Assembly (NCBI GenBank): GCA_964618695.1
Contig: CAZUDX010000006.1
Location: forward strand, 4,548-68,547
Reading direction: 5' to 3'
DNA length: 64,000 nt
From: an uncultured Candidatus Bathyarchaeia archaeon
Lineage (GTDB): Archaea; Thermoproteota; Bathyarchaeia; Bathyarchaeales; Bathyarchaeaceae
This document shows, piece after piece, positions 1 to 22,057 of the stretch (positions are counted from its first letter, which is position 1; every line of letters begins with the position of its first letter). A program made the translations under genes and the position numbers. The notes beneath the pieces are model-generated. The model searched no databases and was not told the DNA's origin. It was given only the letters and a program-made list of their open reading frames with translations.

Positions 1-42
1 CAATTAACATGCAAATTGCCCTGAAAAACACACGCAACAAAA

Positions 43-100
43 ACAAAAGGGAAAGTTTGGGAGACATGACGCTGAAGGGCGTTCAAATCCCACCGCACCA
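43..100. repeat. tRNA-3'-end-like intergenic element, copy 1 (A-rich leader, GAGACAT core, GTTCAAATCCCACC, GCACCA end)
   Basis: Aligns by eye with copies at 7173, 8634 and 10293. Contains a T-loop-like GTTCAAATCC and ends in GCACCA. No D or anticodon arm could be found. Confidence 0.4.
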
Positions 101-137
101 TTATAAGTAAAATTGAGAGTTTTTTGGCTGTTTAGGT

Positions 138-1958: not shown

Positions 1959-2704
1959 CTTTTTTTCTCCTTCCTTGTTGAATGATTGTCTTCTATCCCT
2001 GAGATTTTGCCGTCAGTCATATGAACTATATAATCACATTTTTCTGCAATCCATCGATTGTGAGTTACAAGAACTAGAGTTTGTTGATTGATCTTGTTTA
2101 TGTGCCGAAAGAGGTCCATAACGTCAGAACTTGTTGCAGAGTCCAGGTCGCCAGTGGGTTCATCTCCTAAGATGATTGCGGGCTGATTGATTAGAGCTCG
2201 AGCTACAGCAACTCTTTGTTGTTGACCCCCAGAAAGTTCTGTGGGTAAGTGATACAGGCGATCTCCCATTCCCAATTCGCGTAGCATCATCTTGGCTTGT
2301 TCTCTAGCTAGTCCAGAGTTTATTCCTCTTAGTAATAATGGAGTTTCTACATTTTCTACAGCAGTTAAGAATGGAAAGAGGTTGAATAACTGAAAAATGA
2401 AACCTATTTTGTCCCTGCGAAAGGCTGTCATTTGTCCATCAGACAGGGTTGAGGTGTCTATTCCATCGATTATGATTTCTCCAGCCGAACGGCGATCCAA
2501 GTGACCTATCATGTTGAGTAGGGTAGTTTTTCCACATCCTGAAGATCCCATAATTGCCATCATGTCTCCTTTTTTAACAGTTAGATCTACACCTTGGAGT
2601 GCATGAACCTCGTTTGATTTGCCCTCGTTGTAACGTTTATGCAGGTTTGAGATTTCGAGGATTACCTTTTTGGAGTTTTGATCGCTCTTGTTTGTCTTTT
2701 TCAT
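1955..2704 (-). CDS. ABC transporter ATP-binding protein (MacB/LolD-like)
   Basis: Motifs GSSGCGKTTLLN, LSGGQQQRVAVARAL and [12 protein letters not shown] chose the internal ATG at 2704 (MKKTNKS...), which overlaps the permease stop as ATGA. The longer ORF start at 2821 runs inside the permease gene. Confidence 0.9.
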   Translation of the reverse strand: MKKTNKSDQNSKKVILEISNLHKRYNEGKSNEVHALQGVDLTVKKGDMMAIMGSSGCGKTTLLNMIGHLDRRSAGEIIIDGIDTSTLSDGQMTAFRRDKIGFIFQLFNLFPFLTAVENVETPLLLRGINSGLAREQAKMMLRELGMGDRLYHLPTELSGGQQQRVAVARALINQPAIILGDEPTGDLDSATSSDVMDLFRHINKINQQTLVLVTHNRWIAEKCDYIVHMTDGKISGIEDNHSTRKEKKR

Positions 2705-5700
2705 CCTACATACCTCAATGCCTCTGCGGGAGGAATTCTTGAAGCTGCAATCGCAGGGAGTGAACCTGACCCTAATGCTATTAGAACAATAATGGAAAGA
2801 TACAATCCAATTTCTTCCCAAGGAATCACAAGTGCTGTGTTTTGCATGTTTGCAAAACCCGTACTCACAAGCAATCCGTTGATTACTCCGATGATTAATC
2901 CGATTATTCCAAGTACCACCAGTTCAAGGAGAACTGAAAGAATAACTTGTCTTCTGGGAAATCCTATGGCACGCATCATCCCAATCTCCCGTTTTCTTTC
3001 GGAAACATTTCGAACCGCAATGACGCCCATGCCTACTGCTCCTATTGCTAAACCAAATGTTACGTAGATTTGTAGAAAAGATGATATTCGATCCAACATC
3101 TCCAAGGTGGACTCGATTCTTGAATAGGTTAGAGTGGAACTTGCAACAAAGAAGTTGTCAGTTGCCAGAAGGCGATATCCCTCGTCGTTTGTATTTGTGA
3201 ATTCTTCAATTGCCTGAGCTATATCCTCAAGTTGAGGATCGTCAATTGGGAGATTGGTTTTAATCAGATAAGAGTCGTATTGGTCTTTCTCCCTTGAGGT
3301 TAAGGTTTTGCCGTTTGCTTCACCTAGATAATTTGTTTGGTTTGCCCAATTTTCGGGTAGGTATAGTGTTCCTAGAATTGAGCTAAAATCAGATTCGCCT
3401 GATCCAAAATCTAATCCAGCCCCCAAAGGGAAACCCCCACCACGTTGACTGTCAAGAGTGCCCCCAATTGTGAAAGCTTGATAATTAGGCAATCCAACTG
3501 ATGAAGTATTCATTGGTATCCAGATTTGAAGTCCAACAGGTAGAAGAAATGAATCTGTGAAAACTATTGGGTTTTTGATAATGTCACCATCTTCATCCTT
3601 CAGAGGCGCAACTCCTTCAAGAGGGTCCTCACCTGAACCTCCTATAGCTCCTGACTGAAATTCGGAAAGGTCAATTTCTCCGGTAAATATGGCAAGTAGA
3701 TCAGATGTAACATTGTATGCAGCCATATTGTATTGGGGATCGAAAATTTGATCCCAAGCTTTTTTCGATAGGTCTAGCATTTCAGTATCGGAGAGGTCTG
3801 AAGTAACAGATTCACGTATACCATCAGGAAAACCATTTAGATAAAAGGCGTAACGCCAGTTGGGATCTGAATAGTCTGAAGCATTGCCTCGGATCTGCTC
3901 TGACTTGAATTCTCCTGTTCCGATTGGAAGCAAATCCGTTCTAGAGTCAAACTCAGACGAAAGGGGGTTTTCCAAGGCTATGAACTTTGAAAAATCTTGA
4001 CCGGGTTGAAAAGTTTTGAAACCAATTACATCTATTATGCGGTCATCAATCTTGTAAAGCTCATCTGAATAAGATGTGCCGGGAATGATTGCCTCAGGCT
4101 TACTCAAGAAGACTGCAAAATCTACGCCTCTAGAGTCTTCTTCAATCTGAGTTGCAGTTCCTAAGCTTGTAGGGATTAACGCAGCCACAACAACATTAAG
4201 AGTTAATATGACCGCAAAAATGGCAAAGGTTAGAGTGGAACGAGTGATATGCGAGGATATTAATGATGGTGATATCTGACCAACACCCTTTACACCCCGA
4301 ATGTTTATCAGGATGCCCCTTAAACCACGCATCACAATGGGTAGATTGAGGGCAACGAACATTATAGAACCAATTATTATCTCAATAATTCCCAGAATCA
4401 GGATTTCAATGGATAATCCGGTAATGTCTGTTACCCAGTTACCCATAGCTACAACAAACAGGATTGAGGGAATAGCCCAGAGGGTGACAGCGGTTATATT
4501 GAAAGCTTTAACCCTGTCCATGAACCGCGAGAGAACAAGACCTAGACCTCCCGTGAATAATCCGAATCCCATCATGAGGGTTCTCCATTCTTCTAGGGTG
4601 TCCCATCCTTCACTAACCCAAAAGACTTGATGTGTTTCATCAAACACTCCGTTGGTCAGAAGAAGAATGATGCCCGCAACAATCAATAGAACACCAAGGG
4701 CTGCTAGGTTCCGACTGGATTTTGCTTTGAATTTCACTTTTATTCCACGAAGAGCCTCTACAACGTTAACTCGAGAAGCCCTTAGAGCTGGAAGAATTCC
4801 AGTTATTATGCTTAGGACCACACCTACAATGACGGATAAAATAACTGCTTCTTGAGAAACAACTGGTTGAACACTTAGTTCGCCAGTTCCAAATAATCCT
4901 ACAAGATACATGGCTACAGCTTGACCAAAAGCTAATCCTCCGACAAATCCTAGAATTCCTCCGATTATTCCTTGGAATAAGTTTTCAATCATTATTGATT
5001 GGAAAATTCCCCTGCGATTGGCACCTACGGCTCGTAGAACCCCTGTTTGAAATTCTCGGTCTTCTACACTCATAAGCTGAATGTTAGTGATGAGTAAAAC
5101 ACCAGTTAAAGTGATAAGGAAACCCAAAGAGGTCAAGATTGTGCTAAGTAGTGTGATGAAGAATTCTGCGAAACCAAAGAAATCTAAACGAGCCGAAGTG
5201 ACCTGATAAATTTTTTGTGCTTCACCTGTTTGAGGGTCAACTTCTTCGGGAATTGCATCCTCTAATGATTCTACTTTAGTTCTCAAATAATCTTCGTCTA
5301 TTTCTAGGATAAAATGGTCTGCTTTGTAGGTCACCAAAAAAGCGCTTATAATGTCTGTTTCCCGTTTAGGGTCTTGCAAGCTAATCCAATCCTGCAGATG
5401 CTCCAACTTGAATACAGCTCCAGAATATTGGGAGCCAATTCCTGGACGATTAGAATCGAAAATACCAACTACCTGCAGTTCCACTCTTGAGATTTCTGGA
5501 GTAAATGAGATGATAGGTAATCGGGAGGAACCGTTTAGAGTTGGAGTCTCGAAGGCAATTTCGCTTATGTTAATGCTCGCCCGTGTTCCATTGAAACTTA
5601 TGATTGCTATGTAGGCGTCTCCTCTAAGTGTTCTTCCGGCATAGGGAGTCAAATCAAAAGGTAAAGCGTTAAGCGTAGCAATGTCCGTCCCGTTTGCTAC

Positions 5701-6525
5701 ATCAATTTTGCTTCCATTATCCAAGAAGAAACCTAATATAACTCCTGCATTGCTGGTGCCTGTGGCTGTTACGTTAATGTAAGAATAGTTTGATAAATTC
5801 AGTTGTGGGCAGTTGAGCGTATAAATTGTTACACTGCTCATGAAATCAGCTGGTTGAAGTTCAAGATATAGATTAGACACGCTGCTGTTGAGAACATATT
5901 CAGCATTTGTGAGGTTTGTGTTTATTATCCATTCAGACAAAGGAACAATTGGTGGGATGATAGTTGTTGTGAGGTTGGTAAATTCCGTGGTTAAAGTGAC
6001 TGGTAGTTGCGTCTCTTGGTTTAGTCCTAGTTGTTCAGCTTGATCGCTAGATAATAAGATACTTTTATTATCGTTTAGGAGAAGGCTTATGTCCATTTGT
6101 TCTCCGGTTTTCCAATCATAAAACGTTCCAAACGCATCTGGATAATCTAATGGAATTCCAGCAGTGGTCATTTTAGGGTCAAATTGACTGGATATCAATG
6201 CTGGGATTTGTGTAGTGAGCTCGGGCATGACTCCTACTGCATCAGGAACTAGGTTTTTTATTGAATCTTGATCGGCAATGCTTAGGTATCCACCCTGAGT
6301 ACTATTTAAAACTCTAAGATCGACTTCTCCTTCGCCTTGAAGAAGGCTTGTTAAAAAAGTATTCTCTAGAGTATCCGTTGTTATCGTAATTCCAACAAGC
6401 AAAGTGACACCTAAAGTTACAGCCAAGACTGCACTAAGATTCTTAGTTTTTCTTCTTGACAACGCCCGCCAAGCAATCATAAAACTAGATTTCAATCCCA
6501 AAATTTTCACCACATGTAATTTCAC
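2701..6525 (-). CDS. Giant (1274 aa) FtsX/MacB-type ABC permease with two FtsX-like TM modules and large extracytoplasmic domains
   Basis: N-terminal TM following AWRALSRRKTKN, which is typical of the FtsX family. There are a central and a C-terminal cluster of TM helices, and the C-terminus reads ...LPAIAASRIPPAEALRYVG. Long N-glycosylation-sequon-rich soluble regions lie between them. Confidence 0.85.
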   Translation of the reverse strand: MKLHVVKILGLKSSFMIAWRALSRRKTKNLSAVLAVTLGVTLLVGITITTDTLENTFLTSLLQGEGEVDLRVLNSTQGGYLSIADQDSIKNLVPDAVGVMPELTTQIPALISSQFDPKMTTAGIPLDYPDAFGTFYDWKTGEQMDISLLLNDNKSILLSSDQAEQLGLNQETQLPVTLTTEFTNLTTTIIPPIVPLSEWIINTNLTNAEYVLNSSVSNLYLELQPADFMSSVTIYTLNCPQLNLSNYSYINVTATGTSNAGVILGFFLDNGSKIDVANGTDIATLNALPFDLTPYAGRTLRGDAYIAIISFNGTRASINISEIAFETPTLNGSSRLPIISFTPEISRVELQVVGIFDSNRPGIGSQYSGAVFKLEHLQDWISLQDPKRETDIISAFLVTYKADHFILEIDEDYLRTKVESLEDAIPEEVDPQTGEAQKIYQVTSARLDFFGFAEFFITLLSTILTSLGFLITLTGVLLITNIQLMSVEDREFQTGVLRAVGANRRGIFQSIMIENLFQGIIGGILGFVGGLAFGQAVAMYLVGLFGTGELSVQPVVSQEAVILSVIVGVVLSIITGILPALRASRVNVVEALRGIKVKFKAKSSRNLAALGVLLIVAGIILLLTNGVFDETHQVFWVSEGWDTLEEWRTLMMGFGLFTGGLGLVLSRFMDRVKAFNITAVTLWAIPSILFVVAMGNWVTDITGLSIEILILGIIEIIIGSIMFVALNLPIVMRGLRGILINIRGVKGVGQISPSLISSHITRSTLTFAIFAVILTLNVVVAALIPTSLGTATQIEEDSRGVDFAVFLSKPEAIIPGTSYSDELYKIDDRIIDVIGFKTFQPGQDFSKFIALENPLSSEFDSRTDLLPIGTGEFKSEQIRGNASDYSDPNWRYAFYLNGFPDGIRESVTSDLSDTEMLDLSKKAWDQIFDPQYNMAAYNVTSDLLAIFTGEIDLSEFQSGAIGGSGEDPLEGVAPLKDEDGDIIKNPIVFTDSFLLPVGLQIWIPMNTSSVGLPNYQAFTIGGTLDSQRGGGFPLGAGLDFGSGESDFSSILGTLYLPENWANQTNYLGEANGKTLTSREKDQYDSYLIKTNLPIDDPQLEDIAQAIEEFTNTNDEGYRLLATDNFFVASSTLTYSRIESTLEMLDRISSFLQIYVTFGLAIGAVGMGVIAVRNVSERKREIGMMRAIGFPRRQVILSVLLELVVLGIIGLIIGVINGLLVSTGFANMQNTALVIPWEEIGLYLSIIVLIALGSGSLPAIAASRIPPAEALRYVG

Positions 6526-6545
6526 TAAAAATCCAGAATGGCAGG

Positions 6546-7079
6546 TTAATTCTCCTTTTCAACTCTCTTAATGATTTTTTCAAGTTTTGTAGAATAGTCC
6601 TTTAAAGCCTCAGCTAATTCTTCAACGTCCTTGTCCGAAAGTCTATCAGAATTTTGGCGCAAAAAAATGAAGGACTTCATTAATTTCTTAACATATTCTT
6701 TTGACCCACAAAATCTTCCATTATCCCCTGCAAGGTCAAAACCACCTACTAACATAGGTGCAAGGAATTCCATTTTTTTTAAGAATTCCTTCCCAAACGC
6801 TTTTTGTTTTTCAAAGAACTTTTTTCCTTCTTCTGTAAAACTGTAGCGTTTAATTCCGAGTTCGTCCTTGGGCAACTCTTCGGTGAAACCTTTTTTGTGT
6901 AACCGAGCTAAGAGTGGATAAATTGATCCTGGACTGGGTTTCCAGCTTCCAGTTTGTTGTTCAATTTCTTCTACGATTTCTGCTCCAGACATGGGTTTTT
7001 CGCTGATCATCTTTAGAACTAAGAATCTGAGAAGACCTCTTGGAACACCTACTGTTCTGCCTTTCCCACTGACACCCAT
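6546..7079 (-). CDS. PadR-family winged-helix transcriptional regulator
   Basis: LLRFLVLKMISEKPMSGAEIVEEIEQQTGSWKPSPGSIYPLLARLHKKGF matches the PadR wHTH pattern. It lies 20 nt upstream of the permease on the same strand. Confidence 0.8.
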   Translation of the reverse strand: MGVSGKGRTVGVPRGLLRFLVLKMISEKPMSGAEIVEEIEQQTGSWKPSPGSIYPLLARLHKKGFTEELPKDELGIKRYSFTEEGKKFFEKQKAFGKEFLKKMEFLAPMLVGGFDLAGDNGRFCGSKEYVKKLMKSFIFLRQNSDRLSDKDVEELAEALKDYSTKLEKIIKRVEKEN

Positions 7080-7172
7080 TTAATCACCGTAATATCGCTA
7101 GTAATATCACTTGCGATATATAACCTTTGTGAATTTTATATCATCAAAATGTGAAACGGATGCAATTTTTTG

Positions 7173-7280
7173 AAAAAAGGGGAGTTGTGGTAGGTATCTC
7201 CACCCTGTAGGGAGTTCGAATCCCACCCCCCTGCACCCTTACTTCGTTTTAGGTTAATAAAACGCAATGATTCCAATTAA
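7173..7280. repeat. tRNA-3'-end-like element copy 2 plus shared downstream segment (ACTTCGTTTTAG..AAACGCAAT)
   Basis: AAAAAAGGGGAGTTGTGGTAGGTATCTCCACCCTGTAGGGAGTTCGAATCCCACCCCCCTGCACCC, followed by a ~45-nt tail homologous to 8724-8772. Confidence 0.5.
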
Positions 7281-7358
7281 TCTCTATCAAGACATCAGCC
7301 CCCACACTTATTGCTCATCACTTAAGATGCCAACATCAAAATTTAATGGCAAGTATTG

Positions 7359-7410
7359 GAAAAAGAAGGTTGCGGGAGATATATCCAGCAAAAGTGAAAA
7401 CTGCAAACTC
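7359..7410. repeat. Partial or deleted copy of the same element family (leader + TTGCGGGAGATATATCCAGC + AAAACTGCAAA)
   Basis: Matches the 5' part of the 10293 copy (TTTGCGGGAGACATCTCCAG) and the AAAAACTGCAAA found ~70 nt after that copy. The T-arm-like middle is missing. Confidence 0.25.
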
Positions 7411-7561
7411 TCTTAATATAAAATCACATTAACCCTTACCCACAGTTTTGGGCTGTGCAAGTTACCTATTATATCTTAAACTTTTGAATTACACCTTCTC
7501 GGTTTTGTTCTAACATTTTGGTTCAATCTTTAAAAATGGTTTTTTACTAAAAAAATAGGTT

Positions 7562-8497
7562 TTAAAGGTAGATTGTAAAATGGAGACGTTCAACTAATTC
7601 TTTGTAGCGGTTTCTTATGGTTACTTCTGTTACTTGAGCAATCTCCGCTATCTCTCTTTGTGTTTTTCTTTCTCCCGTTAATACAGAGGCAATGTAACTC
7701 GATGCTGCTGCAATTCCAGTTGGTCCTCTTCCTGAAGTTAGTTTCAATTCTTTGGCTGCAAAAAGAATTTTATGTGCAATCTCTTCAACCTTACCTTGTA
7801 TTGTCAGCTGATTACAAAATTTAGTAATATATTGGCTAGGTTTTACTGGTTTAATGAAATAGTGGAGTTTCTTTATCAAGAAACGATAGCTGCGTCCAAC
7901 CTCTTTTTTGCTTATTTGTGAAGCCTGCGAGATGTCTTCTAAAGTTCTTGCTACTCCACACTGTCGGCAAGCCACGTAAATAGCGGCTGCTGTTACGCCT
8001 TGAATAGATCTTCCACGTATGAGACGTTGCTTGACTGCTTTTCGATAAATAACTGAAGCGGTTTCAAGAATGTTTCTAGGTAAATTGAGATTATTTGCTA
8101 TCTTAGACATTTCAGAAAGGGCAAAAGCAAGATTCCGTTCAGTGGCGTCAGAGACCCTAATTCGTCTTTGCCACTTCCGCAACCGGTAAATTTGAGCCTT
8201 CTGACCTTGAGGAAATCTTTGACCATGAACATCTCGATCATGCCAATCTATTGTAGTGGAAAGTCCTTTATCGTGAATTGTAAACGTGGCAGGAGCACCA
8301 GCTCGTGCACGTTTTGCACGCTGCTCGGCATCAAAAGCTCTCCATTCAGGTCCTTGATTTGCCAGTTTTGTGACAACTACATAACCACAACTCATGCACA
8401 CGATTTCAGCAGATTCATTGTCTTTCATTAAGCGACTGCTTCCACATTCTGGGCACCCTCGAGTTGGCGGAGATGGTGATGCGTTTTCTGATTTCAT
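7562..8497 (-). CDS. tfb: Transcription initiation factor B (TFB/TFIIB)
   Basis: N-terminal Zn ribbon CPECGS...CMSCG followed by two cyclin-fold repeats. I chose the ATG at 8497 (MKSENASP...). A TATA-like TTATATAG lies ~15-25 nt upstream on the coding strand. Confidence 0.95.
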   Translation of the reverse strand: MKSENASPSPPTRGCPECGSSRLMKDNESAEIVCMSCGYVVVTKLANQGPEWRAFDAEQRAKRARAGAPATFTIHDKGLSTTIDWHDRDVHGQRFPQGQKAQIYRLRKWQRRIRVSDATERNLAFALSEMSKIANNLNLPRNILETASVIYRKAVKQRLIRGRSIQGVTAAAIYVACRQCGVARTLEDISQASQISKKEVGRSYRFLIKKLHYFIKPVKPSQYITKFCNQLTIQGKVEEIAHKILFAAKELKLTSGRGPTGIAAASSYIASVLTGERKTQREIAEIAQVTEVTIRNRYKELVERLHFTIYL

Positions 8498-8633
8498 TTT
8501 TTTCCGTCTATATAATCCAAATTTAGTGTATATAGAACACGATTGGCTAGTTGCTCGTGGGTTATTAATGTATGGGTTAACAGCTTCGTAAGTTGTGGGT
8601 GCAAGACCAAAGACATAAAAACATAGAAAAACC

Positions 8634-8772
8634 AAAAAAGGAGTTATGCGGTAGATATCATCATAAGTTGAGCAGAAAACACGATTTACTAGTGAATATT
8701 AATTCGAATCCAACTTCCTACCCTAACTTCGTTTTAGTTCAATTAAACGCAATCTCCACGATTACAGATTAA
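8634..8772. repeat. Degenerate, expanded copy (copy 4) of the tRNA-3'-end-like element plus shared tail
   Basis: AAAAAAGGAGTTATGCGGTAGATATC...AATTCGAATCCAACTTCCTACCC, then AACTTCGTTTTAGTTCAATTAAACGCAAT. It is in direct orientation to the 7173 copy and carries a ~35-nt internal insertion. Confidence 0.45.
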
Positions 8773-8919
8773 CCCAGAACAATTTCTATTTTCTTATCTT
8801 GAAATTTAAAAAAGGACGAGTTGTGAAATGCTCGCGTACCAATTCCACATGTGTTCACTGGTTTTGATTGATTGTGCGTGCACTCGGTGTTACTGACACA
8901 GAAGATATGCAGATTTGAT

Positions 8920-9198
8920 TCAGCCGATAATTTCTACTGGACTTGCCAGAGCTTGGCCCGGAATACCCTTTCGGAAACGAGCCCTAACGAGGCCGTTCTT
9001 TCCATGCAACGCCACGATTTTTCCTCGAGCCTTATGTTTTCCGACAGGCCACGCGACCTTTCGACCTATAAGTCGCGCCGCCCTGCCAACTGATTTAATG
9101 CCGGGGAAACGGAGGATGTATTCTTTTGGCTTCTGGGTTTTCAGTCCTCTCCGACAACTCACGATGACGCCTTCACCGGTTTTAGACACAACATTCAC
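8920..9198 (-). CDS. rpl35ae: Ribosomal protein eL33 (L35Ae)
   Basis: Its 92-aa length and sequence (...GRKVAWPVGKHKARGKIVALHGKNGLVRARFRKGIPGQAL...) are typical of archaeal L35Ae. Confidence 0.9.
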   Translation of the reverse strand: MNVVSKTGEGVIVSCRRGLKTQKPKEYILRFPGIKSVGRAARLIGRKVAWPVGKHKARGKIVALHGKNGLVRARFRKGIPGQALASPVEIIG

Positions 9199-9340
9199 TT
9201 CGCATTTAGGTGATATGTTATAATTAGGTGTAGAAACTCGGATATACCTTTTTAAAGTTGTGCCCTAAGCCCTCATGCGCATGCATCAAAGATCAACTTG
9301 GAATATTTCTTGCAAATACGATTGGTTGTTTGTTCAAGAG

Positions 9341-9559
9341 TTAATCTCTTTGTTCAGTGGCAAGTTTTTTCTGATTCTGAAGCTGAGTTATGTAGCCAGC
9401 TACTCTGTTTCTTAGTTTTTTCGAAGAAATGTTGGTGAAGGTGTCCACGAGTTTTTTGTTGTTTTCAAAGTCTGTTGTGAATTTGTCTGGAAACCGTTCC
9501 ACCAATTCTCGAGCTATTCTTTTCTCCAACTCGATTTTCACCTTACCCCAAGCTTTCAC
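9341..9559 (-). CDS. rps17e: Ribosomal protein eS17 (S17e)
   Basis: [44 protein letters not shown] matches the conserved S17e N-terminal domain. Confidence 0.85.
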
Positions 9560-9609
9560 TTGTCCTCCACGAACACGTAGTTCTCCTCTGCCTTAAACAC
9601 CAATGTCGT

Positions 9610-10170
9610 TTACTCGTAGAAAATAAGTTTTTTTTCCTCGAGTCTCTTATGGAGGTTGCCAACCGATTCGTAAACATCTTCTTCCTTGGTAGCTCCCGTA
9701 CAAACCAGTTTTCCACTGGCGAAGATAAGAAATACAACTTTTGGATCATCTACTCGATAAATTAGACCAGGAAACTGTTCGGGTTCATACATGGTTTTGC
9801 CGAGACTGTAAGCCGCTTCTTCAAGTTCTATTCTCCCTGAAAGATTCGCTGAGGCAACCATGTTCACTACTTTGATTTCAGGTTTGCCAGGGATTATTAT
9901 TCCACTATTCTTTAGTTCCCTTATAACCTTCTTAATTGCTCTTTTTGCCTCTTTTTCCGACTTGGCTCCGGTGCAAACCATCTTCCCAGAATTGAAGATT
10001 AAGGTAGCAGTTTTAGGTCTCTTTAACCTGAAAACCAAACCAGGAAACTGTTTCGGACGATATTCAACGGTTGGATTTCCCTTAACAACAGCGTTCAAGT
10101 CAATCCTCTGATTTAATGTACCAGTTGCTACGACATTTTCGATTCTGATAGAAGCTTCAACTCTGGGCAT
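9610..10170 (-). CDS. tbp: TATA-box binding protein
   Basis: Two direct repeats: IENVVATGTL...QFPGLVFRL...TATLIFNSGKMVCTGAKS and VVNMVASANL...QFPGLIYRV...VVFLIFASGKLVCTGA. Confidence 0.95.
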   Translation of the reverse strand: MPRVEASIRIENVVATGTLNQRIDLNAVVKGNPTVEYRPKQFPGLVFRLKRPKTATLIFNSGKMVCTGAKSEKEAKRAIKKVIRELKNSGIIIPGKPEIKVVNMVASANLSGRIELEEAAYSLGKTMYEPEQFPGLIYRVDDPKVVFLIFASGKLVCTGATKEEDVYESVGNLHKRLEEKKLIFYE

Positions 10171-10292
10171 CCGAATCCACCTTGATCATCATTAATCTGG
10201 AAGTTATTTAAATGGTTCCAAATGCGTTAAATCAGAAGGAATAATTATTTAGCCATCAGGTTTGGGGGGTTAAAATTTCCTCCTATTATTCT

Positions 10293-10359
10293 AAAAAAGG
10301 GGGAGTTTGCGGGAGACATCTCCAGTTGATTGGGGGTTCGAATTCCACCCCCCGCACCA
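10293..10359. repeat. tRNA-3'-end-like element copy 3 (best copy, ends CCCCCGCACCA)
   Basis: AAAAAAGGGGGAGTTTGCGGGAGACATCTCCAGTTGATTGGGGGTTCGAATTCCACCCCCCGCACCA. TTCGAAT + 5 nt + 7 nt + A + CCA reproduces the spacing of a tRNA T-loop, acceptor 3' strand and CCA, but only ~51 nt are available and no D or anticodon arm is present. Confidence 0.5.
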
Positions 10360-10537
10360 ATAGTACACCTTTCTGTTGTATGGGTCGAAAAAAGTTGGTT
10401 AGCTGCTTTCAAAAGGCACCAAAAACTGCAAAAGCGGGAAATAAGCAAGTGAGGATTAAGTTTTTCTCAAACGCCTCCTCGTTTTAAGCCATCATGTATG
10501 CTTCGTTTGTTTTGATATTAGTTCGCCTTTTCAGTTT

Positions 10538-11500
10538 TTATGTTGCCAGTGTCTGTGCAAGTTGTAGCAAACTCAAGTCCAATGGTTTTTCTGTTTTGCA
10601 CACTTGCTCAAGTTCGATGCTCGTTATTCTTCCTTCCTGTAATCCAACCATCCTGTTTCCCTGTTTGTTCAGCAGCAGTTCAACCGCTTTGTTTCCGAAT
10701 AAATTAGCTAAGAGCCTGCTTCTTGCTGTGGGGTTGCCGCCTCTCTGGGCGTAACCTGAAACGCTTAACCTCACATCTATCCCCGTTTGTTCCTCAATTT
10801 CTTTCAACAGTTTATGGGTGTCACCGATTCCCTCTGCTGCCACGATTATGCCTGACTTCTTTCCTTTAGCACTGTTTTGCTCTAGAGTCCTAACGATCTC
10901 CTCCAACGAATATTCCATTTCTGGAACCAAAATTATCTCAGCTCCAACCGTAAGTCCAATTGTCAAAGCTAGAAACCCTCTTTTTCGTCCCATAACCTCA
11001 ACTATGAAGACCCTTTCGTGGGAGTTCGCTGTGTCCCGAATTTTGTCAATCTCATTGACTGCAGTGTTAACTGCTGTATCAAAACCTATAGTCTCCTCAG
11101 TTCCAAAAACATCATTGTCAATTGTCGCAGGAATCCCCACTATCCGCGCATCGGTTTCTCTGCTTAATTCTAAGGCTCCTCTTAAAGAGCCGTCACCACC
11201 CACAACGACAAGTCCATCAACTTTGTTCAAAGCAAGAGTTTCCGCAGCTTTCTGCACGCCCTTTTTCTTTCTGAACTCTGGGCTTCTTGATGTGCGGAGA
11301 ATCGTGCCGCCCAAATGAAGTATTCCGCCAACGCCTCGGGGAGTCAACTTTCTATATGTGTTAGTTAACAGGCCGTCCCATCCCCTCTCGAAACCTAACA
11401 CTTGCAGACCGCTTGAGCAAGCGACCCTGACAACTGCTCGGATAGCAGCATTCATGCCCGGAGCGTCTCCCCCGCTTGTCACCAATCCTATCTTCTTCAT
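10538..11500 (-). CDS. pfkA: ATP-dependent 6-phosphofructokinase (PfkA family)
   Basis: MKKIGLVTSGGDAPGMNAAIRAVV, GGDGS, IPATIDND and MGRKRG motifs. I chose the ATG at 11500 rather than the ORF start at 11551. Confidence 0.9.
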   Translation of the reverse strand: MKKIGLVTSGGDAPGMNAAIRAVVRVACSSGLQVLGFERGWDGLLTNTYRKLTPRGVGGILHLGGTILRTSRSPEFRKKKGVQKAAETLALNKVDGLVVVGGDGSLRGALELSRETDARIVGIPATIDNDVFGTEETIGFDTAVNTAVNEIDKIRDTANSHERVFIVEVMGRKRGFLALTIGLTVGAEIILVPEMEYSLEEIVRTLEQNSAKGKKSGIIVAAEGIGDTHKLLKEIEEQTGIDVRLSVSGYAQRGGNPTARSRLLANLFGNKAVELLLNKQGNRMVGLQEGRITSIELEQVCKTEKPLDLSLLQLAQTLAT

Positions 11501-11667
11501 CGTCCATTCTCCAGTCAGTAAACATTCAAGACAAAATGTTACGCTAAACAAAATAATAAGCTTGAGTGCAAAAGATATTCCCGAATCGCCCTTAACTGAG
11601 CATTTGACGGAACTTTTTCGCCTGCGCTGGAGATATCTCGGTGAAACTCGTTGTTTTTGTGCACGAA

Positions 11668-11916
11668 TTAGCAGTTAATGTTCAATGGTGTCTTAGTAAT
11701 AGCTGGATTCCCTTGATGAAGAATGAACCCGAAACCATTGGAGTTGTGGTTAATAATAGCCCAATCTTTTGTTGGTAGTCGTCGGTGAAGGGAAAAGTTG
11801 GTGTTATCCATCCGCTTATTGGCAAATAAATTAGGAGCAAAATAATGATCCAAATTGTAAAAAGAGTGGAAAGGATAAGGTTTTGCAGTTTCTTTTTCAA
11901 TTTGAAAATCTGTCAT
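11668..11916 (-). CDS. Small hypothetical protein (frame uncertain; an alternative overlapping frame 11682-11900 would encode a 72-aa membrane peptide)
   Basis: ATG start 6 nt after the upstream stop, preceded by GGGGA. Two same-strand frames are open and I cannot discriminate between them from sequence alone. Confidence 0.3.
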   Translation of the reverse strand: MTDFQIEKETAKPYPFHSFYNLDHYFAPNLFANKRMDNTNFSLHRRLPTKDWAIINHNSNGFGFILHQGNPAITKTPLNINC

Positions 11917-11922
11917 ATCCCC

Positions 11923-12456
11923 TTAGGATGTGCTTTCAGCTAATACCGAAATGCTTACTGTCGTCGGTTGGTCCGTGCTGACCGAATTTGCGGTGGTGGT
12001 GATCTCAAAATCGAATGTCCAATCTCCCGCCGAATCTAAGGCAACTCCAGAAGCGGTGTCTGGACTGCCGACATTTAATGTTGCTGTGGTGTCACCGGTG
12101 CTGTTGCTTGACCCGCCTGGTACAGTGTCGCCTACTTTGATTACGATCTGGTAGGTGGCGTAATTTCCGCTTTGACTATCCAAATCTGTGTCAAAATGTA
12201 GGTAAACGTTTGCTTTGGAGGTTGTTATGCTAACTATATCATTTAGAGATGATGTGTTGCTTGGGGTGTAGAGAATTGTTTCTCCTTCTTCTATGTTACC
12301 TAGAGTGCCTTCACTGAGAGTAATGTTGGCAACTTCTACAATGGTTTGGTTGACCGTGTTAGATGCTTGCTCATAGACAAATGCTGATACAGAAACAATT
12401 AGGAGGCTCGTCAGTATTAGAAAAGTTCCAAATGCGCGTCTTCTCAAACTGTCCAC
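11923..12456 (-). CDS. Secreted protein with SipW/TasA-type-like signal region (DUF1102/TasA-like?)
   Basis: The N-terminus RRRAFGTFLILTSLLIVSVSAFVYEQAS resembles the ...G(T)FAYF... end of SipW-dependent signal peptides. The rest is T/S/N-rich and predicted to be beta-rich. Confidence 0.55.
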   Translation of the reverse strand: MDSLRRRAFGTFLILTSLLIVSVSAFVYEQASNTVNQTIVEVANITLSEGTLGNIEEGETILYTPSNTSSLNDIVSITTSKANVYLHFDTDLDSQSGNYATYQIVIKVGDTVPGGSSNSTGDTTATLNVGSPDTASGVALDSAGDWTFDFEITTTANSVSTDQPTTVSISVLAESTS

Positions 12457-12562
12457 TTCGGACTCGGAATATGAACAAAATGATATTAAAATACTGTGAA
12501 CGCTGAATATTTATTCTTAATTCATATGCTATTTATCCAAAGCTCTGATTATACCAACTAAA

Positions 12563-14203
12563 ATGAAGAACAAAAGGAATACCGCTGGTCTACTGTTTGC
12601 TACTTTGGTTTTATTGATACCTATTGCCCAGGCTTTAACGTATAACCAGCAATCTGATACTATTGCTCAAACAATCAGCAACATCCCAAATTTCTTCGTG
12701 GACAATAATACTTCGGATATGGATTCTAGTGTTGACAAGGGTACTCATTCAAACTTCACCGCAGAACAATATGGTCCAAACTCGATTTATGACACTCTAA
12801 CAGAGGCAGATACTGGAGGCACCGAAACTGGATATAAAGTCCAACAAGGATATGCCGAGATTGGAGCAACTTCTACTACGCTTGATGTAACTTTAGACTA
12901 TATTCCTGACCTGAGTCGAGCTTTTGTTCTTGTTCACTATTATTATGGTCAACCAAACAGCAACATAAATCATGAAGCAGATGAGGGTATGGGAAATGCA
13001 TATCTCTGGGATGATTCTGGTACAACAAAAATCAGGTTCACCCGAGGCGCACAACATGGCATAGTGACTCGATGGGAATGGCAAGTCATTCAATGTTTCA
13101 ACCAAGAGTTCAAAGTGTACCGTGGTTCTCAATCTTACTCTGGAACTAATACTTTATACACTCCAAACATTGGAGCTACGGTTAATGGAAGCAATTGTTT
13201 AGCTTGGGTGAATGGGGTAACTTCTGACAAGACAGGAAGAGGCAGAATCAGAGAACACTACTTCACAGCCGACGAAAGTGCTGGTTCACAAACTACTCTT
13301 AATATTCGGAGATATGCACCCGCTGGAGGTCCGAGTGGAACACTCAGATGGATAGTTGTAGAGTTTGACGTAGGTGGACACTTCAATGGAGCAATAGATA
13401 GTGGGGAAGTGAGTGTATCTAATCAATACGAATCAAGTCCAGCAACTTTTACCATAACTGGTTGCAATAAATCGCGTTCAATTCTGTTAGCTCAAACAAG
13501 AACCAGCGGGGATGATGGACTAAACACTCATGCTACGGCTGTTAGAATGGTTAGTGACACTCAGGGAGAGGCTTACACTCATGATAACAATTTCCTTCGA
13601 GTTGTTAGATGGTACGCTATAGACTTTGGGCCAGATGTTGGGAGCAGACAAGAAGGCAGAATCGACAACACGGCTAATCCCAATTGGAACTCAGAAGACA
13701 TCACTCTATCTCCAAACATTACTGTTAATAGAACAATTTCGTATGTCAGCTTCACTAGTGATGGCGATGGAACGTTATTTCCTAGACCAACCTGTTACTA
13801 TTGGCTTTCAGCTCCAGACAATCTTGCAATCAGGAGACCAAGATATGGACAAGAAGGAAATATAGAATGGCAAATTCTTGAACTACCATATTCTGCCAAT
13901 ACTACAAATTACGAATTAGACCTTGAAGTTCAATGGACAAACATCGATTACCATGAACAGAATGAAGAACTTTGTATATACGCGGGAACAACGGGGTCAG
14001 AAAATATCAAAGTAGACGTTTGGACCGGTTCAGAGTGGGTAAATCTATTCACAGATCTTAACAGCGGATGGAATAACGTTACAGTCACTTCTTATCACAC
14101 ATCTTCAACGTTTACTATCCGATTCAAGGGCGGCACAGAATCAACCGATGCCACACAGGACTACTGGACCATAGACACAACACTATTACACACTTGGACT
14201 TGA
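12563..14203 (+). CDS. Secreted hypothetical protein (546 aa)
   Basis: Signal peptide MKNKRNTAGLLFATLVLLIPIAQA and many N-x-S/T sequons. It is divergent from the 11923 gene. I recognised no catalytic motif. Confidence 0.7.
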   Translation: MKNKRNTAGLLFATLVLLIPIAQALTYNQQSDTIAQTISNIPNFFVDNNTSDMDSSVDKGTHSNFTAEQYGPNSIYDTLTEADTGGTETGYKVQQGYAEIGATSTTLDVTLDYIPDLSRAFVLVHYYYGQPNSNINHEADEGMGNAYLWDDSGTTKIRFTRGAQHGIVTRWEWQVIQCFNQEFKVYRGSQSYSGTNTLYTPNIGATVNGSNCLAWVNGVTSDKTGRGRIREHYFTADESAGSQTTLNIRRYAPAGGPSGTLRWIVVEFDVGGHFNGAIDSGEVSVSNQYESSPATFTITGCNKSRSILLAQTRTSGDDGLNTHATAVRMVSDTQGEAYTHDNNFLRVVRWYAIDFGPDVGSRQEGRIDNTANPNWNSEDITLSPNITVNRTISYVSFTSDGDGTLFPRPTCYYWLSAPDNLAIRRPRYGQEGNIEWQILELPYSANTTNYELDLEVQWTNIDYHEQNEELCIYAGTTGSENIKVDVWTGSEWVNLFTDLNSGWNNVTVTSYHTSSTFTIRFKGGTESTDATQDYWTIDTTLLHTWT

Positions 14204-14296
14204 ACTGATTTTCTATACTCAAAAAAGGAGGATGGTTTAAATCCCTCCAAAAGAATTTCAATTAAGTTTAAAAGTCGCTTTCAGGACATTACTGCA

Positions 14297-14932
14297 ATGA
14301 AACGGGAGGAACAACATTTGAGTGATGAAGCCCAAAGTCGTTTTTACATTCCAGGAGCCACCACAATCGGCTTGGTTTTCTCTGACGGCGTCATATTAGC
14401 CTCAGAAAAACGAGTTTCCTACGGCACCATGATAATGAGCAAAACTGGAAAAAAGGTTTTCAGAATTGCTGATACTGTAGGTGCAGCCTGTGCAGGTTTG
14501 GTTTCGGATATGCAGGTTTTGGTGCGAGAGGTGGAAGCCTACGCAAAGCTCTTCGAGTTCGACGCGAAGAGACCGATGCCCGTGAAGTCAGCCGCTAAAG
14601 TTATGGCAAACGTTCTCTTCGGCAGACGCTTGATTCCTTTGATTACCCAAACTATCATTGGCGGAATGGATGAGGAAGGACCATCAATTTATGTGCTCGA
14701 TGTTATTGGTTCTGTTTTACCCGACAAATATGCTGCTGTAGGTTCAGGAGCCCAGATCGCCACTGGAGTGTTAGAGGAAGGATACAAAGACAACATGTCC
14801 CAGCAAGACGCAAAAGCGTTGGTGCTGAGAGCAATAAAATCAGCTGTGAGCCGAGATGCCATGAGCGGAGACGGCGTAGATTTCATGACAATCACAAAAG
14901 AAGGAATCCAAGAAGAAACCACTACCTTCTGA
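14297..14932 (+). CDS. psmB: Proteasome subunit beta
   Basis: Propeptide followed by the TTIGLVFSDGVILASEKR (Thr1) motif, plus GSGAQIATGVLE. Confidence 0.95.
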   Translation: MKREEQHLSDEAQSRFYIPGATTIGLVFSDGVILASEKRVSYGTMIMSKTGKKVFRIADTVGAACAGLVSDMQVLVREVEAYAKLFEFDAKRPMPVKSAAKVMANVLFGRRLIPLITQTIIGGMDEEGPSIYVLDVIGSVLPDKYAAVGSGAQIATGVLEEGYKDNMSQQDAKALVLRAIKSAVSRDAMSGDGVDFMTITKEGIQEETTTF

Positions 14933-14934
14933 TT
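14919..14934 (+). repeat. 16-bp direct repeat, left copy (CCACTACCTTCTGATT), includes the psmB stop codon
   Basis: Exact match to 17895-17910. Confidence 0.8.
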
Positions 14935-15101
14935 AGCTAAACATTTCCCCTATTCCAGTTCTTCTTGAGATTCTGCAGATACCGTAAAGTCAAAACAAAG
15001 TTCTCTGTATTGTACAGCTTAAAACATATACCTGCTATTCATAACGTGTTTATACGCAATTGTCTAAAATATTTCCATTAAGATAATTAGGCGTTTATAG
15101 A

Positions 15102-17801
15102 ATGACCGACCTCTATTCGATTGAGACTCTGTTGGAGAACCTTGAGGAAATAAAGAAGCTAAAAGAATTCAAGAGGATTCGCAAGTTCCTGAAGTTCTTT
15201 TTAATTGGATTCGTAATAGGGAGAAATAACGAAAAACGAATCAAAGAACTTACTTCAAAAAATTATGATATCCTATCTCATCTGATAGAGATAGTTCTTA
15301 GAAAAAAGCAAAATACCATAACTGAAAACTCCAAGAGTTGGGAAAATCTAGATCAAATTGAAGAAATTATAAGGTCTCATAAAAACGATTTCAGTGAATT
15401 TGAATATTATTCCAACTTGAACAAAATTCATGAATTTCGTACTAGACTTGCTCATCAAACTCAGAAAATGCTTGAACAAGGGATTGAAGGTGTAGAAAGT
15501 AAGCTAAAGGAGATCTTAGAGAGTGGTACCTATCTGATAGCACCCAAAAAGAAAGAGTATAATGCTTCAGTAGAAACACTCGAAAATGAAATCGAACAAT
15601 GCGTGAAAACGCCGTTACTAAATGCTGATTATGTTCATGAAATTAAAGAAAGGCTAGGGACAGCTAAAAAATCGATCTCAAATTACAATGCGGTTTTTGT
15701 TAGACAACGTAAAAAAGATTACCGCTACCTTTGGAGTAATGGATTCTTTACTCTTGATGAAGAACAACAAACAGCAGTTGTAACTGATGATAAACATAAT
15801 CTGGTAGTAGCAGCTGCAGGTTCAGGAAAAACAGAGGTACTAATTACAAGAATTGCATATATTATAAAAAGACAACCTGACTCAAGTCCACCCAAAAGAA
15901 TTCTAGCAATTGCATATCAGAGGAAAGCCAGAGAAGAAATAGAAAGGAGACTACAAGATCGCTATAACATCAAAAACACTAATGTAAGAACGTTTCACAA
16001 GCTTGGAAAAGATATTCTTGAACAAGCTGGTCACAAATATTTTCATACCGACATAGTTGGTGAAAATAAAAAAAGCGAAATCGTTGAGAAGATCTTTAAT
16101 CAAAAAATTGATAATAATCCCGATTTCTACAATCTATTCTTAAATTTTGTGAAAACCATCTACGACAAAGAGGAAAAAGAAGATGAAAAAGCGAAAGATG
16201 AAGCTCTATCATACGCCAAAGAACGTACTTACTACGCATTAAACAAAATTAAAGTAAAAAGTAGAGCTGAAAAAGAGATTATGGATTTCTTCTTAACCCA
16301 CAAACTAAATGGAAAAACCATTGCCGTGAAATACGAACCTGATATAAATGGATTCAGACCAGATTTCTACCTACCTGAATATGACTTATTTATTGAACAT
16401 TGGGGAATCACTAAAAAGGGAACAGTTCCTGAATGGTTTAATCAAACAACTGAAGAATATAAGAAATCTATGGAAATGAAAAAGAAATGGTTCTCTGACC
16501 ATGGTAAACAACTTGTTGAAACAAATGCTTATGAGTATAATCGAAATGATCCTGACAAATTCATTGAACTGTTAAAGGAACGAGTAATAAAAAAACTCCG
16601 AAATTCAAAAAATGAAATTTTCAATTTTTCTCTGAAGAACTATAAGGAAATAGTTGAACTCGTTTGGAAGTCTGATTGGACTCCTGTAGAGGATATTGCC
16701 AACTTCATTACCATTGCCAAAACCTATGGTCTGTCACCTGAGGATACTGAAGCAAGGCTTGAAGAGAAAAATTGGGATTCTAAGCAGAAGGCTTTTGCTA
16801 ATCTTGTACTGCCTGTTTTCGCTAAATATGAAGAGATATTGAAGTCGTATGATAAAATTGATTTTGAAGATATGATTAATAGAGCCATAGATGAACTAGA
16901 TAAAAATCCAACTTTGCGAGCTGACGTTTACGATCATATATTAATTGACGAATACCAGGACATTAGTGCTCAACGCAACAACCTAATAGAAAAACTAATG
17001 GAACGGAATCCCAATTGTAAATTATTCTGTGTTGGTGATGATTGGCAAAGCATAATGGCTTTTTCAGGTTCCAACGTTAATTTCTTCGTAAACTTTGGAG
17101 AATACTTCGAGGACCCAGCGATAACAATAATTTCCACTAATTACCGTAGCAATAAGACAATAGTAGATGCAGGAGCTTCTCTGATAAAGAATAATACTTG
17201 TTGCCAAATACAAAAACCCACTAAAGCAGAAAACGAAGATATAAAGCCAATTGAAATACTTGCATCGCCTCACAAAAATGGATATGAGTATGAGTATATT
17301 CAGCAAATAGCCGAAGACTGTGTAAATCGAATTATCAAATATCTTCAAAAAGGATATTCGCCTAGGGACATACTAGTACTTAGTAGATGTATGCGATCAC
17401 GTATTAAGTCAAGATACAAGTTCCTTTCCAGCATCCAAACTTTCATCAAAAAGGCAAAACAAAACAAATTGGATCTAGCTTGTGGACATGCAGACGCAAC
17501 TAATAGAGTAAGATTACTTACAGCTCATAAAAGCAAAGGTTTGGAATCTAAGGTAGTCTTTCTACTCAATGTTACAAAAGGAACTCATGGTTTCCCTTGT
17601 GATATAGAAGACTCTAAAATTTTTGAACTAGCCAGATTAGATTATCCTAGCCAAAATCATAGAGAAGAAGAACGGAGACTATTCTATGTAGCTATGACTC
17701 GTGCCATAGACGACTTGTACATTTACACTTGGGAACCAGCAAAAAGCGATTTTCTTGTTGAAATCGAAGAACACACTAAGGAAATACGCCTAAATTACTA
17801 A
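15102..17801 (+). CDS. UvrD/Rep/helicase IV-like SF1 DNA helicase with an inserted PD-(D/E)xK-like nuclease motif
   Basis: Helicase motifs AAAGSGKTEVL (I), ILIDEYQDIS (II), FCVGDDWQSIMAFSG (III), TNYRSN (IV), LLTAHKSKGLE (V) and VAMTRA (VI). The insertion carries RPDFYLPEYDLFIEHWG. The gene is conspicuously A+T-rich relative to its neighbours. Confidence 0.9.
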   Translation: MTDLYSIETLLENLEEIKKLKEFKRIRKFLKFFLIGFVIGRNNEKRIKELTSKNYDILSHLIEIVLRKKQNTITENSKSWENLDQIEEIIRSHKNDFSEFEYYSNLNKIHEFRTRLAHQTQKMLEQGIEGVESKLKEILESGTYLIAPKKKEYNASVETLENEIEQCVKTPLLNADYVHEIKERLGTAKKSISNYNAVFVRQRKKDYRYLWSNGFFTLDEEQQTAVVTDDKHNLVVAAAGSGKTEVLITRIAYIIKRQPDSSPPKRILAIAYQRKAREEIERRLQDRYNIKNTNVRTFHKLGKDILEQAGHKYFHTDIVGENKKSEIVEKIFNQKIDNNPDFYNLFLNFVKTIYDKEEKEDEKAKDEALSYAKERTYYALNKIKVKSRAEKEIMDFFLTHKLNGKTIAVKYEPDINGFRPDFYLPEYDLFIEHWGITKKGTVPEWFNQTTEEYKKSMEMKKKWFSDHGKQLVETNAYEYNRNDPDKFIELLKERVIKKLRNSKNEIFNFSLKNYKEIVELVWKSDWTPVEDIANFITIAKTYGLSPEDTEARLEEKNWDSKQKAFANLVLPVFAKYEEILKSYDKIDFEDMINRAIDELDKNPTLRADVYDHILIDEYQDISAQRNNLIEKLMERNPNCKLFCVGDDWQSIMAFSGSNVNFFVNFGEYFEDPAITIISTNYRSNKTIVDAGASLIKNNTCCQIQKPTKAENEDIKPIEILASPHKNGYEYEYIQQIAEDCVNRIIKYLQKGYSPRDILVLSRCMRSRIKSRYKFLSSIQTFIKKAKQNKLDLACGHADATNRVRLLTAHKSKGLESKVVFLLNVTKGTHGFPCDIEDSKIFELARLDYPSQNHREEERRLFYVAMTRAIDDLYIYTWEPAKSDFLVEIEEHTKEIRLNY

Positions 17802-17894
17802 TCTCGGGACTAGTTTAGTTTCTTGAGCTGAACATAACTACTCAAACTACAGAGAACGATCCCTATAAGCTAAGAAGTACGAACTAATCAGAAT

Positions 17895-17910
17895 CCACTA
17901 CCTTCTGATT
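17895..17910 (+). repeat. 16-bp direct repeat, right copy (CCACTACCTTCTGATT), embedded in hairpin AATCAGAA-N9-TTCTGATT
   Basis: Exact match to 14919-14934. Confidence 0.8.
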
Positions 17911-17993
17911 GGTTCAACTTTATAGTTTTATGAGCATAGTTTAGAAACTTTAATACCGTCAGGAATGAAGTGTTTCCTGAAGGGTGAACCAGC

Positions 17994-18611
17994 ATGTCAT
18001 TTCAGTTGACTATTGAAGAGGGCACGTTTCTTGTTAATTTAGCAAGGCAAGCTGTAACTGAATACTTAGAAAACGGCAAAGTGTTGCAGGTTCCCGAGGA
18101 TGTTTCATCCAAGCTTATGGAAAAATGTGGAGTCTTTGTTACATTAAACAGCTTACAAGAGAACAAGAAGGCGTTGAGGGGCTGCATTGGTCTCCCCTAC
18201 CCCACAACTCCCCTAGCACAAGCAGTGGTAGATGCTGCTCTCAGTGCCGCAACACGAGACCCCCGTTTCCGCCCCGTTGTCCTCGACGAACTTGACAACA
18301 TAGTCTTCGAAGTGAGCGTCCTAACTCCCCCCGAACTCGTCAAAGTAGAGAAGCCCACAGAATATCCTTCAAAAATTAAAGTTGGACGTGACGGACTGAT
18401 AGTTGAAAATGGCTACTATAAAGGTCTGCTTCTGCCCCAAGTTCCGGTTGAATATAATTGGGATGAAGAAGAGTTCCTCAGCCAATGTTCCATGAAGGCG
18501 GGTCTTTCACCCGATTCTTGGCTGCTGAAGGACACAAAAATATACAAGTTCCAAGCGATAATTTTTGAAGAAGGTTCACCCAAAGGCGAAATAATGCTGA
18601 AAACACTTTAA
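17994..18611 (+). CDS. AMMECR1-domain protein
   Basis: CGVFVTL...LRGCIG...ATRDPRF...GLLLPQV are the hallmark AMMECR1 motifs. Confidence 0.9.
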
Positions 18612-18625
18612 GGAAACTAAAATTC

Positions 18626-19795: not shown

Positions 19796-19850
19796 GAGAT
19801 GATTAAGACTGGAAGTTCTGAAAACCAGAATATCGGAGACTCCATCCGCA

Positions 19851-20465: not shown

Positions 20466-20467
20466 AA

Positions 20468-22054: not shown

Positions 22055-22057
22055 ATT

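Follow-up and report, generated by a model that had tools for sequence, protein, structure and literature searches.

Short tRNA-like intergenic copies in a Bathyarchaeia genome as probable attachment-site relics of tRNA-targeting integrative elements

The DNA analyzed here, a stretch of 64,000 nucleotides from an uncultured Bathyarchaeia archaeon (referred to at its full length as the window), contains short intergenic copies that end like a tRNA without being one, and the question raised by this locus is what such copies are. The original prediction described four of them, built from four shared parts, and offered several explanations: integrase attachment-site (att) relics, tRNA halves or mini-helix RNAs, a new structured 3' element, or a 3'-UTR or terminator of minus-strand genes. 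Reading the sequence directly, we found all four copies in place and on the same, plus strand, at 41-100 (c1), 7173-7238 (c2), 8634-8723 (c3) and 10293-10359 (c4), with the four parts present. Also borne out were the spacing in c4, where TTCGAAT, five nucleotides, CCCCCGC, A and CCA follow one another exactly as at a tRNA 3' end, the mismatches in the T-stem, and the run CCCC(C)TTTTTT on the minus strand. In addition, three partial copies consisting of the 5' part alone, with no tRNA-like tail, lie near c1-c4, and no further copy was found between 12 and 64 kb of the window. The copies within the window have diverged from each other (71-79%), c2 and c4 being 79% identical over 68 nt (BLAST, E = 4e-7). 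For a family HMM, copies from other genomes were combined with c1, c2 and c4, c3 being left out; the model gave E values of 1.4e-19 for c4, 6.7e-17 for c2 and 1.7e-9 for c1, which are partly due to construction, as these copies are in the model.

Each copy has a two-part anatomy, a 5' module followed by a 3' core. In c4, the module (10293-10325, plus strand, 38 bits with the module HMM) is composed of an A-run, GGGGGAG, TTT and GCG-GGAGAC/ATCTCC-AG; it is the element-side arm of the junction proposed below and holds a 12-bp palindrome. The c4 core (10326-10359, plus strand) is composed of a linker TTGATT, a T-arm relic GGGGG-TTCGAAT-TCCAC, the acceptor 3' strand CCCCCGC, A and CCA. It copies the 3' end of a tRNA-Leu: of 23 positions compared, a single one sets it apart from the intact tRNA-Leu(GAG) in a related locus, L125 (TTCGAATCCCACCCCCCGCACCA). 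The module of c2 (7173-7203, plus strand, 23.6 bits) is somewhat diverged (GTGGTAGGTATCTCCAC), and its core (7204-7238, plus strand) has a tRNA-Leu-type T-arm relic, GGGAG-TTCGAAT-CCCAC, and an acceptor strand, CCCCCTGC-A-CCC, with a 1-nt insertion. The copy c3 is degenerate: only its 5' part, the module at 8634-8663 (GCGGTAGATATCATCA, plus strand), scored with the family HMM (E = 0.048), and the core relic (8664-8753, plus strand) consists of a 27-nt insertion, TTCGAAT-CCAAC, a decayed acceptor strand and a 34-nt stretch that it shares with c2. This stretch, which comes after the tail at 7235-7268 and 8720-8753 (plus strand, 88% identity, family D10), may represent the distal arm of an att site of that type. 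In c1, the module (41-70, plus strand; E = 1.7e-9 for the whole copy) is likewise degenerate, with its A-run interrupted and CTCC lost, and the core (71-100, plus strand) reads GGGCG-TTCAAAT-CCCAC with an acceptor strand that is 4 nt short (CGC-A-CCA). The tails of all four copies are of the tRNA-Leu type. The partial modules lie at 7361-7389 on the plus strand (GGTTGCGGGAGATATATCCAGC, tail-less, E = 0.029), at 8810-8830 on the plus strand (AAAAAAGGACGAGTTGTG..., a weak match found by eye), and at 11627-11658 on the minus strand (AAAAACAACGAGTTTCACCGAGATATCTCCAG on that strand), the last being inverted and forming an inverted repeat, I1, that is 72% complementary to 10294-10325.

Sequences outside the window were also compared. 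A first pattern, spanning both element ends, matched 26 places in one-genome-per-species contigs, 19 of them in Bathyarchaeota MAGs. Among the other seven, ARAGORN called ordinary tRNAs at the match in three (L008, L025 and L027), and chance or a resemblance to tRNAs seems to account for the remaining four; judged from these matches, the family is restricted to Bathyarchaeia. An HMM derived from the first-pattern matches detected more copies inside the same 8-kb loci, and a second pattern, anchored on the 5' part alone, matched at least 120 metagenome loci, indicating that the unit kept constant is the module and that the sequence 3' of it varies. The conserved unit is about 33 bp long, gAAAAAAGGGGAGTT(T)GCG-GGnGAy/rTCnCC-AC, or, written with its usual letters, gAAAAAAGGGGAGTT(T)GCGGGnGAyATCTCCAc, and is highly conserved in about 190 copies among the matches listed, which come from Bathyarchaeia genomes, metagenomes and four viral contigs. 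Conservation was assessed position by position in 192 of the matches listed: the A-run columns were near-invariant, the core G-GGG-n-GA-y-a-TC-t-CCA was nearly invariant in the 60 matches unconstrained by the scan pattern, and the variable positions were mirror images of each other within the 12-bp palindrome GGnGAy/rTCnCC. A small ORF in the module (TTG CGG GnG AyA TCT CCA, M R x x S P, or AGD(I/V)(S/A/T) in another frame) was considered and rejected, the ORFs that continue past the module being of equal length in three frames (median 20-22 codons); the codon-like periodicity of the module results from the mirror symmetry of the palindrome.

A tRNA-like tail follows the module in 94 of 183 distinct copies (51%) among the matches listed, and consists of a T-loop-like heptamer 4-8 nt past the module and an acceptor-like 3' strand behind it, in some cases with CCA, the acceptor strands representing at least 10 tRNA types. 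The other half or so of the modules listed are followed by unrelated sequence, some of it recurrent. In loci with several copies, the modules were co-oriented in 34 of 37 cases and mixed in 3 (among the matches listed), which points to a process at the DNA level. Arrays often mix the tRNA types of their tails, with Leu and Pro together in L100 and similar mixtures in L120 and L041.

Three further observations were made on these sequences. The T-loop reads TGC instead of TTC in 19 of the 94 module-linked tails among the matches listed, spread over Pro, Ala, Leu and Cys types (for example L100:100-174, L109:7073-7140 and L153:4870-4939), and this recurrent TGC may stem from a version of the core that the element itself carries, not from random decay. 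In L120 (769-5204), a non-tRNA repeat, AAGCATrGTTTTTCTGAG..., is present twice with a module before each; one repeat precedes an intact tRNA-Arg by about 60 nt and the other adjoins an integrase fragment, so that it may be a second target class, in the 5' flank of a tRNA. In L093 (~1180) and L123 (~2140-2230), the 5' part of the module recurs in reverse complement (GCAACTCCCCTTTTTTT) 15-60 nt after the module, an arrangement forming a long-range, terminator-like hairpin.

A probable origin of the tails is indicated by loci that retain a complete tRNA gene. In all 7 informative loci, we found an intact tRNA upstream and on the same strand, with a 3' end matching the module-linked tail; the tRNAs were called by ARAGORN, except for that of L026, which was read by eye. 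In L100, a tRNA-Pro and a Pro-type tail share the identical block CAAATCCCCGCGACCCCACCA, the two copies lying 14.3 kb apart. One GNAT gene separates tRNA-Ala from the Ala-type tail in L109, and one PadR gene separates tRNA-Cys from the Cys-type tail in L137. Leu-type tails match a tRNA-Leu in L125 and L016 and an intron-containing tRNA-Leu, missed by ARAGORN, in L026, and in L040 the tail matches an intron-containing tRNA which ARAGORN assigned to Leu (caa). The module was absent beside the intact tRNA in all 7 pairs, indicating that the crossover there lies in the tRNA core. An intact tRNA at one end with a partial copy at the other is the attL/attR geometry expected after integration by a tyrosine recombinase, and direct repeats at tRNA genes, as well as arrays from the re-use of a single site, are established for elements of this kind (PMC6563490). 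As a side result, the tRNA-Leu(TAA) at L026:6241-6370 (minus strand) has a non-canonical intron in the D-arm region, and tRNA sets of Bathyarchaeia obtained with standard tools are probably incomplete.

Integrase genes accompany the module in the related loci. The 14.3-kb segment of L100 between the tRNA and the module copy contains a 386-aa Phage_integrase gene directly beside the tRNA, the product of which has an N-terminal zinc ribbon of the IS1/IS1595 type. When this integrase was used as the tBLASTn query, about 25 of about 140 module-bearing loci gave hits, mostly C-terminal fragments, of which 24 of 27 were on the strand opposite to the module, as in L100 (among the matches listed). This amounts to roughly one integrase fragment per 30 kb, far above the usual archaeal content, as judged from general expectation and not from a matched control. 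The L100 integrase was the informative query, the integrase of L030 giving no tBLASTn match in other loci. In L134, L085, L072, L155 and the attP reconstruction of L100, the core stands between the integrase stop codon and the module, whose end is 52-70 nt from that codon; the attP arrangement is convergent, the reverse complement of the module coming about 100 nt past that stop. Four IMG/VR viral contigs carry the module, three of them with tRNA-Leu-type tails as in the window, and in L153 and L155 the integrase gene directly adjoins it. The integrases are Xer-like tyrosine recombinases that scored below every curated cut-off, far under those for IntI, with archaeal XerA as the closest model. 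They are merely 43-55% identical to each other, in contrast to the approximately 90% conservation of the module. A GNAT gene adjoins the module in both L109 and L120, which differ in core, indicating that cargo and module move together. Operons of PadR with ABC/FtsX genes, found in the window at 6546-7079 and 138-6525, recur in the module loci L117 and L081 with 33-41% protein identity and may be recurrent cargo; a PadR gene also adjoins the module in L137.

In the window itself, a profile of integrase C-termini was compared with the six-frame translation of 1-12.7 kb, and nothing scored below E = 0.9; a 'KRS*' resemblance after c2 and c3, considered as an integrase remnant, was faint and not significant. 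The genes around the copies are archaeal and encode TFB, TBP, L35Ae, S17e, ATP-PFK, a PadR regulator and an ABC/FtsX transporter; among the proteins closest to this TFB, some carry the label Bathyarchaeota or Thermoproteota in their source databases. DNA homology with the TFB loci of relatives stops at 8616-8621, the edge of c3, and synteny with L001 is seen only from 17.9 kb on (17927-25877), and the left 18 kb of the window (1-17900) looks like a variable island. A UvrD-like helicase is encoded at 15102-17801, and the L100 element carries a helicase with 56% identity to it. The segment 7496-8616, consisting of TFB and about 120 nt upstream, shows 86-91% DNA identity to segments that occur in differing contexts in relatives, namely after Pcc1 (L001, L002), beside a Phage_integrase gene (L030) and beside an integrase C-terminal fragment (L031), and TFB genes of 77-87% protein identity adjoin module arrays in L087 and L033. 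TFB, a near-housekeeping gene, appears to have been relocated repeatedly. In L001, L030 and L031, TFB has no copy beside it, and in L003 only a weak resemblance to the module was seen upstream of the gene.

Taken together, we consider the copies to be relics of the attR/attP type, left by integrative elements of Bathyarchaeia that target tRNA genes with a Xer-like tyrosine recombinase, a reading to which we assign a probability of about 0.78. Such elements would insert into the 3' part of tRNA genes, each copy being a leftover recombination junction. The 3' half of a copy would be the att core, duplicating the end of the target tRNA from the T-loop to CCA (here that of tRNA-Leu) and decaying now that it lies outside any working tRNA; the 5' half would be the module of about 33 bp, lying on the side of the element. 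A free or reconstructed attP would run from the integrase stop codon through about 25-40 nt to the core and then the module. The palindrome suggests that the module binds a dimeric protein, and the module may serve either the recombinase or an accessory dimeric protein as its site on the DNA; in addition or instead, its oligo-T run on the opposite strand could terminate the integrase gene. The window would then hold a co-oriented array of at least four relics and some partial modules left by repeated integration, either into a tRNA-Leu gene left of the window or into earlier relics, with later loss of the integrase genes. That its copies arose as those of the related loci did is probable on the strength of homology to the family, since the window has no intact tRNA and its first 12.7 kb hold no detectable integrase remnant; the intact tRNA-Leu would be expected left of position 1. 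The att-site explanation in the original prediction is supported by the tails that duplicate an intact upstream tRNA in 7 loci, by the integrase genes or fragments that accompany the module and by the viral contigs that carry module and core next to an integrase. The tie to integrase-bearing elements is also the outcome under which that prediction had foreseen its more unusual explanations giving way to att scars.

Several findings nevertheless count against this reading. The genes between the copies of the window (TFB, L35Ae, S17e, TBP) look resident rather than like cargo. Single arrays contain mixed tail types, which repeated insertion into one tRNA does not explain, and in L120 both copies of the repeated non-tRNA core carry a module; integration into earlier relics of module and core could explain both the mixed cores and this double module. 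Conservation of about 90% beside integrases as divergent as these is unusual for arm sites, and about half of the modules among the matches listed have no tRNA-like tail.

Some of these points would fit an integron-like capture system, in which the module itself is the recombination site, cassettes join by recombination between modules to build co-oriented arrays, and the tRNA-like cores are merely one class of cassette start. In such a Bathyarchaeia-specific form of gene capture, the zinc-ribbon Xer-like recombinase would insert small circular cassettes at module sites seeded at tRNA genes, which, if true, would yield co-oriented arrays of single accessory genes and the relocation of even housekeeping genes such as TFB. 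Consistent with this, 34 of 37 multi-copy loci are co-oriented (among the matches listed), modules are spaced about 0.8-1.7 kb apart with single accessory genes between them (GNAT, flavodoxin, luciferase-like, radical SAM, nitroreductase, PadR, PIN), the module often adjoins the stop codon of a co-oriented ORF, different cores occur within arrays, the L120 module stands before both repeat copies, and the integrase is Xer-like or integron-integrase-like, though under the family cut-offs. However, the 7 tRNA/tail pairs have no module at the intact tRNA, which places the crossover in the tRNA core, and no integrase with an attI-like platform was seen at any array end. The module, furthermore, has only the 12-bp palindrome, with neither an attC-like R/L-box hairpin nor a long-range inverted repeat, and the ORFs between modules face either way. 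We therefore regard both the module as a capture site and the wider gene-capture system as unlikely.

A functional plus-strand small RNA (mini-helix, tRNA 3' half or 3' part of a split tRNA), for which the module would serve as promoter or leader, would account for the exact tRNA 3'-end spacing and the encoded CCA of c4, and a T-run is often found 15-60 nt past the tail. Nevertheless, ARAGORN found no tRNA gene in the window, and Rfam gave no match to the copies at the gathering score or even at E <= 5. Only about 51 nt precede the CCA of c4, and neither a D arm nor an anticodon arm can be drawn. Neither strand of any copy folded with better energy than shuffled sequences, and the predicted folds disagreed between copies. 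Among the matches listed, the T-stem was fully paired (5/5) in 12 of 94 copies (13%), the T-loop read TGC in 19 and CCA was present in 30 of the 94 tails, and half of the modules had no tRNA-like part at all. In an alignment of 61 sequences, the acceptor helix between the GCGGGnG of the module and the tail was 62.8% paired with almost no compensatory change, and overall pairing (67.5%) was close to the shuffled mean (65.7%). The T-stem (74.1% paired, with the pair 50-64 unpaired in 37 of 61) showed some double or compensatory changes and a covariation score above all 500 shuffles, which is what copies descended from different source tRNAs would leave, but the acceptor helix and the module hairpin gave no such signal. 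A mini-helix with GCGGGnG as its 5' acceptor strand was rejected on this ground. The hairpin GGnGA/TCnCC was likewise discarded, as changes at position 30 were uncompensated at position 23, with 12 disruptive A·A or A·G cases and no compensating one. A new structured 3' element, as put forward in the original prediction, is not supported. Split-tRNA 3' halves do not fit either, since intact tRNA-Pro, Ala, Leu and Cys genes share loci with matching tails; with intact tRNAs of the same type nearby, the tail pieces would be redundant. RNA-structure constraint on the copies is absent, and a small RNA of this kind is very improbable. Elsewhere in the window, 11682-11740 gave a weak match to the C/D-box snoRNA snoMBII-202 (20.6 bits, E = 1.8, well below the gathering score), which is probably due to chance.

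The reading of the copies as minus-strand 3'-UTRs or terminators of host genes rested on their reverse complement, which ends in CCCCTTTTTT, an archaeal oligo-T terminator, and on their position between minus-strand genes. The T-run is indeed conserved, each copy in the window does come after a minus-strand gene, and in the convergent attP arrangement about 100 nt separate the integrase stop from the module read in reverse complement. The gene arrangement held for the window but not as a property of the family: for about 190 copies among the matches listed, the nearest upstream ORF was co-oriented with the module in 85 cases and opposed in 66, the nearest downstream ORF in 77 and 69, and the four classes of neighbour orientation were about equally frequent. 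With orientation to genes near random, the host-gene 3'-UTR reading falls, and a terminator requires neither 33 bp of conserved sequence nor a copy of a tRNA; we give this explanation very little credence. The same random orientation led us to reject the module as a downstream promoter or an upstream terminator, and origin-recognition boxes were rejected as well, there being no orc1/cdc6 nearby and the sequences being dissimilar by eye. Least probable of all is a small, tRNA-derived, non-autonomous transposable repeat (MITE- or SINE-like) copying itself into intergenic DNA, since, although the copies are multiple, intergenic and differently present among close relatives (TFB loci L001, L030, L031 and L003), neither terminal inverted repeats nor duplicated target sites can be seen at c1-c4, the 71-79% divergence within the genome is not that of a burst, and the tails match the local tRNA rather than one master copy.

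As att relics, the copies resemble the attL/attR repeats that integrative tyrosine-recombinase elements, pNOB8-type and related, form in archaeal tRNA genes (review, PMC8371274; survey of Thaumarchaeota, PMC6563490), in that the tRNA 3' end from T-loop to CCA is duplicated, the intact tRNA and the partial copy standing on the same strand at opposite ends, the integrase gene adjoins the tRNA (L100), tandem arrays form by re-use of one site, and decay of the element leaves orphan tRNA fragments. They differ from those repeats in the palindromic module, conserved across differing cores and divergent integrases, in arrays that mix core types, and in an integrase with an N-terminal zinc ribbon. Fragments of tRNA genes are mis-scored as tRNAs in prokaryotic genomes (PMC9897764), and these too are partial, non-functional 3' pieces near integrative elements, but the present copies are both too short and too decayed to be called and are fused to a conserved non-tRNA module. 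With the attC arrays of integrons, the family shares co-oriented sites between single accessory genes, often right after an ORF stop, and a Xer/IntI-like recombinase; unlike integrons, it shows no attC hairpin architecture and no IntI/attI/Pc platform, and the duplications demonstrated here are of tRNA cores, not of the module. The split tRNA 3' halves of Nanoarchaeum and Caldivirga also have a non-tRNA leader before the 3' portion; in the present family, however, the leader is identical for all tRNA types instead of pair-specific, the T-arms are degenerate, and intact genes for the same tRNAs lie nearby.

The copies are not a new RNA class. The kind of feature, integration scars at tRNA genes, is ordinary, and the specific module family is newly described, no account of the 33-bp module or its family having been found in the searchable literature. 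The finding raises the questions of why the module is conserved across elements with different targets and how co-oriented arrays of mixed cores are formed. Bathyarchaeia are abundant and mostly uncultured, and the limits of their mobile elements are difficult to draw in metagenome-assembled genomes; for these archaea, the 33-bp module is a sharp sequence marker of integrated elements and variable islands.
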